From positions 209,355 through 273,354 of the forward strand of contig JAWLHJ010000004.1 in the NCBI GenBank assembly GCA_041690395.1: a stretch of DNA of 64,000 nucleotides, in the 5' to 3' direction. The notes under the pieces are model-generated. The model was not told the DNA's origin. It worked only from the letters and a program-made list of their open reading frames with translations, and did no database searches. Positions 32,970-38,445 of the stretch are shown piece by piece. Positions within the stretch are counted from its first letter, which is position 1. Each line of letters begins with the position of its first letter. Made by a program: the position numbers and the translations under genes. Origin of the DNA: Longimicrobiales bacterium (GTDB taxonomy: Bacteria; Gemmatimonadota; Gemmatimonadetes; Longimicrobiales; Gaopeijiaceae).

Positions 32970-33452
32970 ATGAAGGAAGATCAGAACATGGAAGCCACCC
33001 GGGAGCCCAGCGAGGCGGTGCTGCGTGAGGCCCTCGAAGAGAGCGGCCAGCGGTTCACCGAACAGCGGGCGGCGGTCTACCGCTACCTGACGAGCACGGA
33101 CACCCATCCCACGGCGGACGAGGTGCTGGTCGCGGTGCGTCACGAGCTTCCGACGATCTCGCTCGCGACCGTGTACAAGAGCCTCGAGACCCTGGTCGGC
33201 TGCGGCCTCGCGGTCAAGCTCACGTATACCGACGCGTCATCGCGCTACGACGGTCGGACGGACCCCCATCATCACGCACGCTGCCTGGGATGCGGCAAGG
33301 TGGCAGACCTCCCCGGCAAGCTGCCTCAGCGGGAGATCGACGATCTCCGCGACCGGGCCCGGAACTTCACGGTGGTCGGCTACCGATTCGAGTTGTCCGG
33401 CTACTGCTCCACGTGTGTCCCCGAAGGGGGCCCCGCCCCGTTGCACGCCTAG
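32970..33452 (+). CDS. Fur-family regulator, PerR-like
   Basis: HPTADEV, ISLATVYKSL, SRYD..HHHARCLGCGKVAD, GYCSTC (two CxxC). Start may be 32988. Confidence 0.9.
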   Translation: MKEDQNMEATREPSEAVLREALEESGQRFTEQRAAVYRYLTSTDTHPTADEVLVAVRHELPTISLATVYKSLETLVGCGLAVKLTYTDASSRYDGRTDPHHHARCLGCGKVADLPGKLPQREIDDLRDRARNFTVVGYRFELSGYCSTCVPEGGPAPLHA

Positions 33453-33483
33453 CCTGGCCGCGCGCCACGGCTCCCCCCGCCGC

Positions 33484-35265
33484 ATGGGCTTCCTGAAGAC
33501 CCTCGCCCGATTCCCGTGCGCGGCGGTACTTTCGGCGGTCACTTGCATCGCGCCGGGGCTCGCGGACGCGCAGGAGGCGGAGGAGTTCCGTTCCGCCGCC
33601 GAGACGTCCATGCTCCGAGCCGAGACCATCGAGCTCAGGAGCGGGCTGGACCGCCTGCTTCTCGCCCCGTCATGGCGTGACGCCGAATGGGGTGTGCTGG
33701 TCGTCTCTCTGGACCATGGTGACACCCTCTACGCGGTCGATCCGTACAAGCCCCTCGCTCCCGCGTCGAACGTCAAGCTCATCACGACCGCCGCGGCCCT
33801 CCAGACGCTCGGCCCCGACTATCGCTTCGGAACGTATCTGATGACGAACGGGGAGGTGGAGGACGGCGTGCTCCACGGCGACCTCATCCTCTACGGGACG
33901 GGTGATCCGGGGATCTCGAGCCGTTTCCATTTCCGCCGCGACGAGGCCTTTCATCGCCTCGTCGACCAACTCGATTCGCTCGGAATCCGTGAGGTCCGTG
34001 GTGACCTGGTGGCCGACGCCTCCTTCCTGCCGGGCCCCCAGAGGCCCGAGGGGTGGGACCCGCGGGACCTGAACGACCACTTCACCGCAGCCGTATCGGC
34101 CCTCTCGTTCAACGAGAACGTGGTGTCCGTGCGCATCACCCCGGGTGACGTGGGCGCCCCTCCCCGGGTGCAGACGATACCCGACGATGCGGGGATGGAG
34201 GTTCTGAACCTCGCCGAAACGGTGCCGGGCAGCCGCCCTCGCGTGGCCATGCTGCGCGACGACCCGCTCGAGCCGGTACGCGTGGAGGGTACCCTCGGAG
34301 CGGGGGTCAGAGACGTGTGGCGTCAGTTCACGGTCTCCGACCCGACCGTGTTCACTGCCTCGGTCTTCCGCGCACTGCTCACCGATCGCGAGATCGACGT
34401 CCGGGGCGTCACCCGGACCGTGTCCCGCCCGGGGCGGTCGGACCTGCCTCGACTGTCGGCTCCCTTCGCGGGGAAGCGGGGTGTTCGGGTGCTGGCCAGG
34501 CACACTTCCGAGCCCCTGCAGAGTTATCTGGAAGTCGTCAACAAGCAGAGCCACAACCTTTTCGCGGAGTTGGTCTTCCGTGTCGTCGGTCGCTCCGTCG
34601 AGGGCGTGGGATCCACCGACGCGAGCGCGCGGGCCGTCGCCGCCACCCTCGCGGGCCTGGGGGTCGATACCACGGGCATGGTCCTCCTCGACGGGTCGGG
34701 GCTTTCGGCCGGCAACCGCGTGACCGCGCGCACGCTCGTCGACGTACTCGAGCGCATGGCGCAGTCGCCGTCCTGGGGCTACTACTGGGCCACGCTGCCG
34801 GAGGCCGGGCGGGCCCGGGAGCTGGGTCGCATGTATCGGACCGCGGCAGCAGGCAACCTGCGCGCCAAGACCGGGACCATCGAGCGGGTTTCCGCGCTCA
34901 GCGGGATCGTGCGGGCGGCCGACGGTGAGCGCCTGGCCTTCTCGATCCTACTGAATCAGGCGCCCTCGGTCGCCCGGGCCAAGGCCGTCGAGAACCAGAT
35001 CGGTGCTCGCCTGGCCTCGTTCGCGCGAGGGATGGGCTCGAGCATGGACGGTGAGCGTCTCGCCCAGACCGAAGCCCCTGGTCCCCCATACGCCGGGACC
35101 GAGCGACATCGCATCAGGCCGGGCGAGAACCTGACCGTCATCGCGCGGCGGTACGGCATCTCCATGGAAGCACTGCTGGGTGCCAATCCGAGTGTCGAGG
35201 CCAACACCCTCTTCGCCGGCCAATGGCTCGTCATCCCCACGGTTCAGGAAGCGGGCGGCGGCTGA
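33484..35265 (+). CDS. dacB: D-Ala-D-Ala carboxypeptidase/endopeptidase (S13, PBP4) with C-terminal LysM
   Basis: PASNVK (SxxK), SHN (SxN), DGSGLS, AKTGT; C-terminal GENLTVIARRYG LysM. Confidence 0.9.
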   Translation: MGFLKTLARFPCAAVLSAVTCIAPGLADAQEAEEFRSAAETSMLRAETIELRSGLDRLLLAPSWRDAEWGVLVVSLDHGDTLYAVDPYKPLAPASNVKLITTAAALQTLGPDYRFGTYLMTNGEVEDGVLHGDLILYGTGDPGISSRFHFRRDEAFHRLVDQLDSLGIREVRGDLVADASFLPGPQRPEGWDPRDLNDHFTAAVSALSFNENVVSVRITPGDVGAPPRVQTIPDDAGMEVLNLAETVPGSRPRVAMLRDDPLEPVRVEGTLGAGVRDVWRQFTVSDPTVFTASVFRALLTDREIDVRGVTRTVSRPGRSDLPRLSAPFAGKRGVRVLARHTSEPLQSYLEVVNKQSHNLFAELVFRVVGRSVEGVGSTDASARAVAATLAGLGVDTTGMVLLDGSGLSAGNRVTARTLVDVLERMAQSPSWGYYWATLPEAGRARELGRMYRTAAAGNLRAKTGTIERVSALSGIVRAADGERLAFSILLNQAPSVARAKAVENQIGARLASFARGMGSSMDGERLAQTEAPGPPYAGTERHRIRPGENLTVIARRYGISMEALLGANPSVEANTLFAGQWLVIPTVQEAGGG

Positions 35266-35278
35266 CGCTCGTCCCGGG

Positions 35279-35551
35279 TCAGCGTGCCGGAACACCACCT
35301 CGCCCGACCGCCGAACGCAACCGACGGTGCAGTTCCACATCCGACATGGTCTCGAGCGTGCGCTGTCCCGTTCGCTCGGTATTCCAGCGGATGTCTTCCA
35401 GGGGATACTCGATGGTGGGCTCGTCCGCAGGGCGGAGTACCATGTGGAAGCGGCCCTTGTAGTCCATTCCGGGCTCCTCGCGCACCAAGGCTTCCCAGAT
35501 CCGGCCTTCACGATCGGTGAATGTCATCATGGTTCCTTCCCGGTTCGTCAT
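35279..35551 (-). CDS. Small hypothetical protein (90 aa) coupled to the AraC gene
   Basis: ATG overlaps the AraC TGA (ATGA); FTDREGRIWEA...MSDVELHRRLRSA. Confidence 0.7.
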   Translation of the reverse strand: MTNREGTMMTFTDREGRIWEALVREEPGMDYKGRFHMVLRPADEPTIEYPLEDIRWNTERTGQRTLETMSDVELHRRLRSAVGRGGVPAR

Positions 35552-36348
35552 GCCACCGAGCTGAGCGCCCGGGGACGAATCAGAAGATCGCATTCATCGA
35601 CGAACCGTTCCAGAACCACACCGAATCCGCCGGCCTCGACGAGCTGTGTGGGCGTCATGCCGACATAGTTCCGTAGCGCCCGCCGGAAAGCGGATCCGCT
35701 CGAGTACCCGAGCTGACGCGACACGCTCTCGGCACTCCGCCCCGGCTCATCCAGCCACCGACCGGCGTGGAGGAGTCGCGACCAGACCAGCAGATGCCCG
35801 AGCGACGGCAGTCCGTGCCGCTCCAGACCCACGCTGAGGTGAGGGCGCGTGAGCTCCAGACGTTCGGCGACGTCCTCGGCCCCCCAGCCGCGCTGCGCCC
35901 CCTCGAGACACAGGCGAACCACCTCGGTCTCACGGCGTGGCAGCGACGGGCTGACCACCTTGATCACTGCGGAGGCCGTGCTCCTGCCGAGCGCCCGCCG
36001 AACCGTCACCGGTAGCTCCCCGACCATCCCGTCGACCGGAAGCAGGACCAGACCCTCGACTCCGGCCCTGCCCAGCCGAAAGAGCAACCGGGTGGAGAGT
36101 TCCTCTCCGGCGAGCAGGACGAACACGATGCTCGGATACAGCCGCCCCAGCTCGACCAGCGCGCCGTCGGGATCGTGGGCCGGGAGCGCGCGTCCATCGA
36201 TGAGGGTGCACGTCACCGCGTGCTCCCTGAGCGTCCATGTGAGCCGGGTCCACGTGGCCACCCGGATCAGGGCGTGCTCCTCGCCGAGGGCGAGTGTGGT
36301 CGCCTGCAGCATGGAGGAATTCCGCGTCAAAACCGTCGTCAGGGCCAT
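35548..36348 (-). CDS. AraC-family regulator with receiver-like N-terminal domain
   Basis: C-terminal SAESVSRQLGYSSGSAFRRALRNYVGMTPTQL AraC HTH; N-terminal alpha/beta segment (CTLID..YPSIVFVLL). Confidence 0.88.
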   Translation of the reverse strand: MALTTVLTRNSSMLQATTLALGEEHALIRVATWTRLTWTLREHAVTCTLIDGRALPAHDPDGALVELGRLYPSIVFVLLAGEELSTRLLFRLGRAGVEGLVLLPVDGMVGELPVTVRRALGRSTASAVIKVVSPSLPRRETEVVRLCLEGAQRGWGAEDVAERLELTRPHLSVGLERHGLPSLGHLLVWSRLLHAGRWLDEPGRSAESVSRQLGYSSGSAFRRALRNYVGMTPTQLVEAGGFGVVLERFVDECDLLIRPRALSSVA

Positions 36349-36476
36349 CGATCTTCGAAAAAGACATAGCTACGGTCCAAAAGGATACGTCGCTCCGCCT
36401 GGCTTTCAGAAAACTTGAGTTCAGCGGAACGAAGAACCGCCCCTACCGGGTTACCTCCAGACTAGGACCGCCTCGC

Positions 36477-36608
36477 ATGAAGACTCTCCGACGCTCCCTG
36501 CTCGTACTGCTCCTGACCGTCGGTGCCGCCGCCTGCGGCTCGTCCATCACCGCGCCGGACCATACTCCGGATCCCGGTCTCTTCCACACGCCCGATCCGG
36601 GACTCTAA
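36477..36608 (+). CDS. 43-aa exported pro-peptide / mini-lipoprotein with duplicated C-terminal HTPDPGL
   Basis: AGGA SD at 36464-36467; MKTLRRSLLVLLLTVGAAA-C-GSSITAPD-HTPDPGL-F-HTPDPGL-stop. Confidence 0.8.
   Translation: MKTLRRSLLVLLLTVGAAACGSSITAPDHTPDPGLFHTPDPGL
36561..36605 (+). repeat. Two 21-bp coding repeats (HTPDPGL x2) separated by one codon
   Basis: cat act ccg gat ccc ggt ctc vs cac acg ccc gat ccg gga ctc: 5 differences, all at third positions and synonymous. Confidence 0.9.
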
Positions 36609-36618
36609 GCCGGCTGCT

Positions 36619-38445
36619 TCAAACCGAAGCACCCGCGACAGCCCTCCGCATCTCTCGAAGTCCTTCGCGGACTTCCCGAGGTGCGGAGGGCTTCGTGTCT
36701 GCAGCCTTCTCGCTCTCGGTCGGCACATCTTCCTGAAGCAGCCGCTCGAGGGCTTCCTCCGAGCGGAAGAGCGTTCGGTTGAGTCCGAACTCCTCCGCGT
36801 GGCGGACCGCTCGCCGCAGCCACCTCTCCGCCGCGTCCCGCATGCCGAGCGCCTGGTACGACAGCCCCCGGTAGTACAGGATCTCGGCCTTCGCCGCTCT
36901 CGGACCCGACTCCCACCCGAGTGCGTCACACTCGGCCGCTCGCCGCTCGAAGTCACCGAGGTCCCCGCGTAGGGCCGCGAGGTACGCAAGTGCGTCGAGC
37001 GCGTACGTCCTGTAGTACACGTCGGTCGCGTCGCTGGCCACCACGGACCAGGCGTCCTCGGCCGCCGCATGGTCGCCGAGATCCACGAGGGCGCCCGCCA
37101 GGTTCGCGAGGCACCGGACACGTCCCGCTGCGTCCTCGTACGAGCCGACCGCGATCCACCCGTGGCGCAGCGCCACATCGAGATTGCCCGCGGCGTGCTC
37201 CAGGGCGAGCAGGCCGTGATGGATGGACGCGATCACGTCGCGGCTGCCCGAGCGGCCTGCGAGGTCGAGTGCGTCCTGATAGCCCGAGCGAGCTTGGGGC
37301 AGATTGCCGAGCTCCTGGCGTACGGCCGCAAGACCACCGAGGGATTGGGCGGCCTTCGCCGCGAAGCCCGCCGCGAGCGCCACCTCGTAGGCGACCTCGT
37401 AGGCCCGCACCGACGCCTCCCACCGCGCCGCACGACGCAGGACCCTGCCCCGGAAACGGGAAGCGTCCACAGCCGCGTCGGCGTACATCACAGCGGCCGC
37501 GGCATCGAAGGCACAGCGGTACAGCTCCACGGCGCCGTGGACGTGGCCCTCCGCTTCAGCACGCTCGCCGGCGGCGACCAACCCGTCCGCGGACGCCTCG
37601 AGGTCGCGGCTCGCGAGCGCTCCGAGGAGCGGCTCCCAGGCTTCGACCGGATCGCCACCCTTCCTGCAGCGACCAACCAGCTGGTCACGAACGGCATCGA
37701 TGCGCGCGCACCAGGCCTCTTCTGCCGTATACCCCACGTCACCGTCGACCAATCCCCGGGCGAGCCGCACGACCAGGAATCGTTGCTCGACCTTCGCGCT
37801 GACCTCGGGGCGGTCTTCCCGTCCCTCACAGTCCTGAAGAACCGGGAATCCGACGAAGCCTCTCGCCTCCGGGGCCCGGAGCCGCACGATTCCGTCATCG
37901 GATCCCGCATCGAGATCCTGATGGAGGAGCGCGCTCGCGCACTCCCCGGAGAGGAAGAGCGCCCGCTGCCGGTCTTCCTCGCCCAGGCGTGGCCGCGGTC
38001 CGACGGAATCGCAGACGAGGAACCAAGAACGGGCGCCGTCGCTCCCGAGCGCCACGGTGAAGATGCTTCCGGCATCCCCCAACTTCCTGCCCGGCGCCCC
38101 GGCCGAGTCGTACACGCCCGGCAGGCCGATCTCCCAGGCCCGCTCGAGGGGCTGCGCCGGAAACGCTCGCCGTGGTCGGTCGCTCATCAGATCGAGCAGG
38201 ACGTGCGGATGCGGCGAGGACTCGCCGTACTCGTCGATCCACACGGCGGCGGCCCGATCGGCACCCGTGATCTCACTGAGCTCACTGAGATGCGCGACGA
38301 CCGCGAGCCGAACGGGATCACCCGAATGGATGGCGCGCGCAAGCTGGAATCTCTGCCGCCTCCGGCTACGATGCTCGGAGAGGCCGACGACTTGAGTCCG
38401 GCCGGTACGCACCGCCCCGGATTCAGCGATATTTGTCGGGAGCAT
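36619..38445 (-). CDS. Cytoplasmic TPR protein with N-terminal GAF-like region
   Basis: C-terminal half has several ~40-aa helical repeats (e.g. AQSLGGLAAVRQELGNLPQARSGYQDALDL, RCLANLAGALVDLGDHAAAEDAW, EILYYRGLSYQALGMRDAAERWLRRA). N-terminal TGADRAAAVW..FTVALG..WFLVCD..FLSGECASAL looks GAF-like. No signal peptide. Confidence 0.8.
   Translation of the reverse strand: MLPTNIAESGAVRTGRTQVVGLSEHRSRRRQRFQLARAIHSGDPVRLAVVAHLSELSEITGADRAAAVWIDEYGESSPHPHVLLDLMSDRPRRAFPAQPLERAWEIGLPGVYDSAGAPGRKLGDAGSIFTVALGSDGARSWFLVCDSVGPRPRLGEEDRQRALFLSGECASALLHQDLDAGSDDGIVRLRAPEARGFVGFPVLQDCEGREDRPEVSAKVEQRFLVVRLARGLVDGDVGYTAEEAWCARIDAVRDQLVGRCRKGGDPVEAWEPLLGALASRDLEASADGLVAAGERAEAEGHVHGAVELYRCAFDAAAAVMYADAAVDASRFRGRVLRRAARWEASVRAYEVAYEVALAAGFAAKAAQSLGGLAAVRQELGNLPQARSGYQDALDLAGRSGSRDVIASIHHGLLALEHAAGNLDVALRHGWIAVGSYEDAAGRVRCLANLAGALVDLGDHAAAEDAWSVVASDATDVYYRTYALDALAYLAALRGDLGDFERRAAECDALGWESGPRAAKAEILYYRGLSYQALGMRDAAERWLRRAVRHAEEFGLNRTLFRSEEALERLLQEDVPTESEKAADTKPSAPREVREGLREMRRAVAGASV

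Follow-up and report, generated by a model that had tools for sequence, protein, structure and literature searches.

The window analysed here (the whole stretch of DNA, 64,000 nt, from contig JAWLHJ010000004.1 of a Longimicrobiales bacterium) carries a compact three-gene cassette, in which a small gene for a predicted lipoprotein precursor ending in two copies of the heptapeptide HTPDPGL lies between a gene for an AraC-type regulator and a gene for a TPR protein (Table 1). The peptide has no family assignment in Pfam, NCBIfam or Atlas, and the database entries of its relatives are 'hypothetical' or nameless; it belongs to a 90% cluster with 9 members, and its nearest relative encodes an identical protein.

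Table 1. Genes and sequence features of the cassette and its upstream flank (window positions)
Feature	Position	Strand	Remarks
D-Ala-D-Ala carboxypeptidase (S13, dacB-like; PBP4) with C-terminal LysM domain	33415-35265	+	
Small conserved gene downstream of the regulator	35279-35593	-	Start may lie further in; no convincing Pfam match
Regulator, 266 aa, receiver-fold N-terminal domain and AraC-type HTH	35548-36348	-	Divergent from the peptide gene
Three conserved boxes, candidate operator and promoter	36350-36418		36350-36370, 36379-36389, 36409-36418
Small precursor gene, 43 aa	36477-36608	+	ATG at 36477, TAA ending at 36608; lipoprotein-type signal peptide, Ser/Thr linker, two HTPDPGL copies
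Signal peptide (residues 1-19) and lipobox Cys20	36477-36536	+	Predicted signal peptidase II site
Heptapeptide copy 1, HTPDPGL	36561-36581	+	
Phe spacer codon between the copies	36582-36584	+	F or D in close relatives; duplicated along with the unit
Heptapeptide copy 2, HTPDPGL	36585-36605	+	TAA directly after
Cytoplasmic TPR protein, 608 aa, candidate peptide receptor	36619-38445	-	Convergent, 10 bp from the peptide gene

The small ORF is a real gene, as the initial annotation had held. Searches with the TPR protein returned 85 distinct loci, and the three-gene layout (AraC, peptide, TPR) is kept in all 71 evaluable ones (window included; match reaching residue 540 or beyond, with at least 600 bases of room), the 14 others being cut off and set aside. 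The small gene was recovered at 67 of these loci by a search filter that demanded a Cys and at the other 4 by eye, yet no evaluable locus was found without such an ORF. Stops, frameshifts and free amino-acid drift in the orthologues had been named as evidence that would speak against the annotation; what we found is that 2 of the 71 peptides are broken (by an internal stop in L036 and a frameshifted start in L103, both neighbouring genes persisting), whereas the remaining frames are kept and the heptamer varies by lineage. At one further locus (L038) an assembly gap falls within the small gene. A second set of 84 loci (80 of them metagenomic) comprised 54 evaluable ones, in which the peptide was recovered in 49 and the AraC gene in 51. 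More than 100 loci, some with a receptor identity as low as about 33%, preserve the reading frame, the signal peptide and the Cys. Within the family, the TPR gene occurs in 72 of 201 genomes, and peptide profile matches (E <= 1e-6) were obtained in 66 of these 72 and in none of the 129 genomes lacking it; of the remaining six TPR-bearing genomes, three encode a divergent peptide with a single unit next to the TPR gene, and in the other three the contig ends at the TPR gene. The records of the related loci bear the titles Gemmatimonadota, Gemmatimonadales or Longimicrobiales, apart from one 'uncultured bacterium'. The cassette is chromosomal and single-copy in nearly all genomes, and none of 22 candidate viral contigs was confirmed. 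Outside the family, 28 loci with AraC homologues yielded a TPR match within 1.5 kb in 7 cases and a repeat lipopeptide (as defined by the filter) in none. In neighbouring families (L020, L021, L027, L029, L030) we observed distant TPR genes beside small lipoproteins without tandem repeats, in another gene order and with ends such as GFTNNN, WSGSGS or GYIGVGQ.

The precursors share a basic start, a hydrophobic core, Ala-Cys and a Ser/Thr/Pro linker. Across the 56 rows of the alignment C20 is invariant and A19 is kept in more than 90%, and from this invariant Cys we regard the signal peptide as lipoprotein-type, with Sec export and lipidation as predictions; the NCBIfam lipoprotein-signal match is weak (E 0.012, under the cut-off). 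No cleavage motif common to the copies is evident. Many precursors (L041, L049, L063, L068 and others) have a Cys-x5-6-Cys loop between the linker and the first repeat, likely a disulphide, which is missing from the peptide of the window.

As first described, the two copies in the window differ at 5 of 7 third positions (codons unlike at His, Thr, Pro, Pro and Gly, alike at Asp and Leu) with no amino-acid change, and the second is flush with the stop codon. Compared with each other, they have about 6 synonymous sites, of which 5 are changed, and about 15 non-synonymous sites, all unchanged (Fisher p = 3e-4). The 5 differences are no excess: the codon usage of six window genes leads to an expectation of 3.7 differences between unrelated codons, with a probability of 0.28 for 5 or more, and the synonymous sites are thus saturated. 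The idea that the codons of the copies had been scrambled beyond expectation, as a device against recombination, was rejected on the same grounds and because family-wide fewer codon pairs differ than expected (counts below). The annotation overlooked the Phe codon that separates the copies and that makes the local repeat period 8 residues, so the heptapeptide is not the repeating unit at this locus; throughout the window's own 90% cluster (2 or 3 copies per precursor) the duplicated unit has 8 residues, with F or D as spacer. A 7-residue period applies to 49 of the 56 peptides with repeats. Purifying selection on the peptide is upheld by the pooled comparison of neighbouring copies (pS = 0.50, pN = 0.0065, pN/pS 0.013), in which pN is capped by the definition of a copy (at least 5/7 identity).

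Among 68 relatives, precursor length ranges from 29 to 87 aa and copy number from 1 to 8 (13 precursors scored single, 55 multi-copy), with 9 copies in one metagenomic locus, and the array runs up to the stop codon in 45 of the 55 multi-copy relatives. Since the nearest relative shares 4 of the 5 codon differences, the duplication in the window is old, as had been proposed; this does not extend to the arrays at large, which turn over (1-9 copies) and which, with 421 of 1,232 codon pairs differing family-wide against 651 expected, are partly homogenised. Likewise, the proposed selection for the exact peptide holds inside a gene, where the copies are identical, but not between lineages, as the unit is lineage-dependent (HTPDPGx, HNPDGGN, YQPGPNG, IQPGTGN, HTLGSGN, YDLGSDN and others). 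Several loci depart from the common arrangement. L203 (G068:C1:2416617-2416915) contains two tandem peptide genes with one IIPGPNT-type unit each, a whole-gene duplication with no internal repeat. L204 (G013:C351:4020-4187) contains a second, divergent precursor with four HTTDNGS units and a variant intergenic motif, and its genome has a second TPR match on a different contig. In L006, L036 and L213 a stop codon replaces the first His, with degenerate repeats behind it and intact AraC and TPR genes; this allele is a candidate signal-blind or cheater form.

The arrangement of a leader followed by tandem identical cores in variable number would also suit a multi-core RiPP-like precursor with cores modified by enzymes encoded elsewhere, an alternative entertained in the initial annotation. 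Its leader, however, is an export signal, and the genes around it in the window (AraC, TPR, EamA, dacB and a small hypothetical one) recur in relatives; in agreement with the annotation, no modifying enzyme was found among the window neighbours scanned (the flanks of relatives being compared only for homologues of these neighbours). We consequently find little support for this alternative and rate it as very improbable.

Conservation at the DNA level, which the annotation had denied, is absent between the two copies but pronounced between species: of 42 codons in the peptide gene, 1 differs silently from the nearest species, versus about 35% in both flanking genes (p = 3e-7). Over positions 36400-36620, a segment of about 250 bases that takes in the promoter end together with the peptide gene is near-identical to L002 and L031 (3 mismatches in 200), and the flanking genes diverge at about 15% of their bases. 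The low silent change possibly reflects a recent exchange of these approximately 250 bases (a signal allele) or a strong constraint on the mRNA; RNA structure does not appear as its cause, the segment having no unusual fold (z -0.53). Such low synonymous change, which could point to an element acting as DNA or RNA, or to a recent exchange, is also what a chance ORF in GC-rich intergenic DNA could invoke, together with thin RNA evidence: one 212-nt contig spans 36484-36695 in metatranscriptome run X16 (one of two runs; strand and level are not readable from contigs), and the bin 36441-36571 is uncovered in run X7. The frame, signal peptide and Cys kept over so many loci, the pN/pS between copies and the ordinary fold have, on the other hand, largely refuted this reading already, and we assign it a negligible probability.

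The gene convergent with the precursor encodes a protein (AlphaFold2 model, pLDDT 85.5) composed of a GAF-like domain (residues ~20-176; Atlas GAF matches 0.97-0.98), a helical bundle (~200-280) and seven TPRs with a capping helix (282-570). No membrane segment is present, Pfam TPR_12 was found in 63 of 65 members of the receptor family, and no HTH family was found. An inward-facing Arg cluster on TPR2 is highly conserved (R330 in 63/65, R/K334 in 63/65, R337 in 65/65 receptors). In structural comparisons the model matched LGN (VIA Z 20.4, rmsd 3.1, 230 aligned), RapI (Z 20.0, rmsd 4.4, 267 aligned), RapJ and the Rap-CSF complex 4gyo (Z 19.5) and NprR (Z 16.8), and its residues 217-556 align to residues 4-370 of RapH (Z 17.7, rmsd 5.8, 326 aligned). 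Foldseek places Rap pLS20 in rank 42. At the sequence level the receptor profile matches Rap pLS20 (E 0.0024), with OGT, LGN and generic TPRs matching far better, and its identity to Rap proteins (10-15%) is not above that to LGN. Beyond a disordered linker, residues 590-607 (36622-36678, minus strand) form a conserved C-terminal helix with columns that co-change with peptide position 1, although gaps make this unsure. Elsewhere in the genome of the window (G000), C1:542008-542523 encodes a stand-alone 172-aa paralogue of the GAF-like domain (E ~1e-15), with weak similar matches in many relatives.

The regulator (model pLDDT 91.1) combines an HTH (Pfam HTH_18, E 5e-12) with an N-terminal (beta-alpha)5 domain that superimposes on a receiver domain (VIA Z 15.6, rmsd 2.3, 116 aligned). 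Canonical receivers carry an acidic pair, a phospho-Asp, a Thr/Ser and a Lys; here 15 of 17 rows retain Asp51, and the acidic pair, Thr/Ser and Lys are not conserved at the expected places, so that the domain is likely a pseudo-receiver. A second receiver-like/AraC paralogue (E 1.7e-32) lies at C1:107873-108610 of the same genome (L141), and neither a TPR gene nor a small lipoprotein was found within 1.5 kb of it. In the intergenic region of about 130 bases between the regulator and peptide genes, the conserved boxes could be anchored in 64 of 66 loci, and a direct repeat, spaced by 21 bp as is typical of AraC-family sites, is found in boxes 1 and 2. A box matrix built from 62 relatives (without the window and its nearest relative) gave the window site a score of 48.9, the runner-up in the genome reaching 12.4, and we infer that the regulator binds these boxes. 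The candidate operator occurs once in the genome, hence no regulon is visible; a second full operator is absent from the genome (the weak site at C1:998211 is unconvincing), and a scan for sigma-70 promoters and terminators returned none. In the 57 loci with full flanks, the small gene downstream of the regulator is retained in 53, dacB in 38 and EamA in 35, and the conserved neighbours tested included neither a peptidase nor a transporter. An Opp/Dpp-type operon is encoded elsewhere in the genome (C1:487-493 kb), with one family-5 solute-binding protein and permease-like genes behind it.

Whether the peptide changes together with the receptor was examined by several routes. In a partial-correlation analysis of 61 loci, 9 of the top 20 columns lay in TPR A helices (p = 0.006, or 0.017 after thinning to 51 loci; the columns are not independent). 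The positions of a TPR that face inward are 2, 5, 6, 9, 12 and 13, and on a tree built from AraC and GAF sequences (61 loci; 455 receptor columns, 36 of them inward-facing; 129 AraC control columns) the top co-changing column was inward-facing for 4 of 7 peptide positions, versus 13 of 129 AraC controls (p = 0.003). The pair of peptide position 7 and residue 407 exceeded all 129 controls, that of position 1 and residue 484 was equalled by 5 of them, and the other five peptide positions did not exceed the control maximum. The rules derived from these loci were then applied to 39 new ones (thinned from 44; one duplicate of a broken locus dropped), the heptamer phase being set by hand for 11 peptides of the first set and 13 of the new. 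There, D484 accompanied H or Y at position 1 in 37 of 37 loci (others 0/2); H488 accompanied Y at position 1 in 10 of 12 (H 8/25); V, I or L370 accompanied P at position 5 in 7 of 11 (others 2/27); C445 accompanied D at position 4 in 17 of 21 (G 1/18); and S or I407 accompanied N at position 7 in 15 of 22 (others 2/17). Most of the rules held, but one weakened (S/T at position 5 with D370, 10/17) and one failed (S at position 7 with R407, 0/5). Phylogenetically independent pairs, which were too few, nearly always went in the predicted direction and were never significant (median p 0.125-1), and parsimony on separate trees gave the TPR region a small edge (24 changes versus 28-29; minimum 19). 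Peptide positions 1, 5 and 7 change together with inward-facing TPR residues, and the repeat, as the initial annotation had proposed, is likely the functional unit. The positions involved suggest that the peptide runs antiparallel to the repeats, with its C-terminus at TPR2.

An intact, membrane-tethered micro-lipoprotein (serving as a Pro/Gly spacer, a metal-binding tail or a surface tag, merely regulated by AraC and flanked by a TPR protein that senses something else through its GAF-like domain) would agree with the invariant lipobox Cys, the Pro/Gly-rich tandem repeats, the lack of a cleavage motif, the presence of a sensor domain in the receptor and the non-significant tests on independent pairs. 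It fits poorly with copies that are letter-perfect inside a gene (pN 0.0065) but divergent between lineages, with a position 1 at which His is often Tyr, Ile or Gly, with the 13 of 68 precursors that were scored with a single unit, and with covarying receptor columns that map to the TPR groove and not to the GAF domain; we therefore view it as improbable. Binding of the peptide to the TPR protein, in whatever manner, we consider likely.

Taken together, these observations point, with modest confidence, to a Rap-Phr-like signalling cassette, in which an exported precursor would release heptamers that bind the TPR groove and switch the AraC-type regulator, and a signal role is the best reading of the repeat peptide. 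The precursor would be exported as a lipoprotein (as its signal peptide predicts), proteolysis may free short HTPDPGL-type peptides, and these, by analogy with known systems, might be re-imported through the Opp/Dpp-type permease encoded elsewhere in the genome. Inside the cell the peptide may dock in the groove against inward-facing residues, the covariation placing position 1 near TPR6/7 (484, 488, 525), position 4 near TPR5 (444, 445) and positions 5 and 7 near TPR3/4 (370, 407), with the free C-terminus possibly at the conserved Arg cluster of TPR2 (330, 334, 337). The loaded receptor could then contact the regulator and change its activity at the boxes, with feedback on the peptide's own promoter; sensing would take place between cells, and more copies would mean more signal per precursor. 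Further points count against signalling: a lipid-anchored precursor in a diderm must be freed and its peptide must then cross membranes, and the fold match does not separate Rap (Z 20.0) from the eukaryotic LGN (20.4).

A rival is a cell-autonomous monitor, in which the peptide binds the TPR protein inside the producing cell and the precursor would serve to test Sec export, the maturation of lipoproteins or proteolysis in the envelope, as unexported or clipped precursor accumulates in the cytoplasm and trips the regulator. Such a monitor explains the covariation and the co-occurrence equally well, the lipid anchor speaks against free diffusion, and a chromosomal, nearly always single-copy cassette, near dacB (PBP4) in 38 of 57 loci and found in no viral contig, suits it. 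It has, however, no evident use for the many lineage-specific peptide-receptor codes or for 1-9 copies, which are both typical of Rap-Phr, and between close relatives the peptide can diverge further than the receptor does (L037/L040/L133; L096/L097/L104). We hold this explanation to be unlikely. Only tentatively, at somewhat less than even confidence, do we extend the Rap-Phr-like reading to family-wide cell-to-cell peptide signalling in a diderm phylum, with a lipoprotein polyprotein (of up to 9 identical heptapeptides) as source, a GAF-gated TPR receptor with a readable code and a pseudo-receiver AraC protein as output. On the same footing, such signalling could have arisen as a distant diderm offshoot of RRNPPA or have been invented independently along the same design, and could comprise dozens of natural orthogonal peptide-receptor pairs.

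In those passages of PMC10075063 that define it, the RRNPP signature consists of a propeptide of 10-100 aa exported by Sec, a receptor of 250-500 aa with TPRs, and adjacency of the two genes. The present propeptides fall within that length (43 aa; 29-87 aa in 68 relatives), the receptor has TPRs and the genes are adjacent in 71 of 71 evaluable loci; the receptor is longer (608 aa) because of its N-terminal GAF-like domain, the part behind it measuring about 410 aa, and the host range of RRNPP (Bacillota and mobile elements) does not include the Gemmatimonadota, in which the related loci lie. As length and host range deviate and homology gives no decision, we do not file the cassette as an RRNPP member. 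Parts of PMC10075063 and PMC11343458 describe peptide signals read by cytoplasmic TPR receptors as a Bacillota trait; Phr propeptides with duplicated pheromones appear among the Bacillus Rap-Phr systems covered in PMC11343458 and PMC5199041, and the sections of PMC9765709 on RRNPPA propeptides count 211 of 2,734 as SPII type and mention up to 6 identical copies in multi-copy ones.

The cassette resembles Rap-Phr in its small propeptide, predicted to be exported, beside a cytoplasmic TPR protein without HTH, in the C-terminal motif of 5-10 residues, in intragenic and whole-gene duplication (the two peptide genes of G068), in peptide-receptor covariation, in a response-regulator-type protein as candidate target and in a helical region that aligns with the Rap N-terminus. 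It differs in its diderm host, in a precursor that always has a lipobox, in repeats that are the rule (55/68) and nearly always identical, in a 608-aa receptor that has an additional GAF-like domain and whose gene converges on the peptide gene, in a dedicated regulator inside the cassette, and in its occurrence as one copy per chromosome and in no viral contig. With NprR-NprX, PlcR-PapR and AimR-AimP it shares a TPR groove for a short peptide (predicted here) and multi-copy propeptides; NprR, PlcR and AimR carry their own DNA-binding domain, whereas here DNA binding resides in a separate AraC-type protein. LGN/Pins and KLC, which rank first or equal first by fold, accommodate extended peptides in their groove, but they are eukaryotic scaffolds, and the likeness is one of the generic TPR superhelix, silent on function. 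The sex pheromones of Enterococcus are signals of 7-8 residues cut from the signal peptide of lipoprotein precursors; a lipoprotein precursor is the common source, and the selected and covarying part is here the mature C-terminal repeat instead. Fungal mating-pheromone polyproteins, drawn as a parallel in a portion of PMC5199041, likewise place several identical copies, in variable number, in one secreted precursor, but here there are no dibasic spacers and the predicted receptor is cytoplasmic.

In a search of mainly open literature and main texts we found no published description of this cassette; the related reports concern Gram-positive bacteria or are reviews, and the candidate tables of PMC10075063 and PMC9765709 could bear on its novelty. 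Should the proposed signalling be true, peptide signals read by TPR proteins would extend across the Gram divide, into Gemmatimonadota, and the question would arise how a lipidated precursor is freed and its peptide re-imported through two membranes. The claim can be checked without culture of the host, as the heptamers are synthesizable, the receptor is a soluble protein and the residues to exchange follow from the covariation. Furthermore, the structural phylogeny of RRNPPA lacks an outgroup, according to the relevant part of bioRxiv 2023.09.19.558401, and the cassette described here might supply one.
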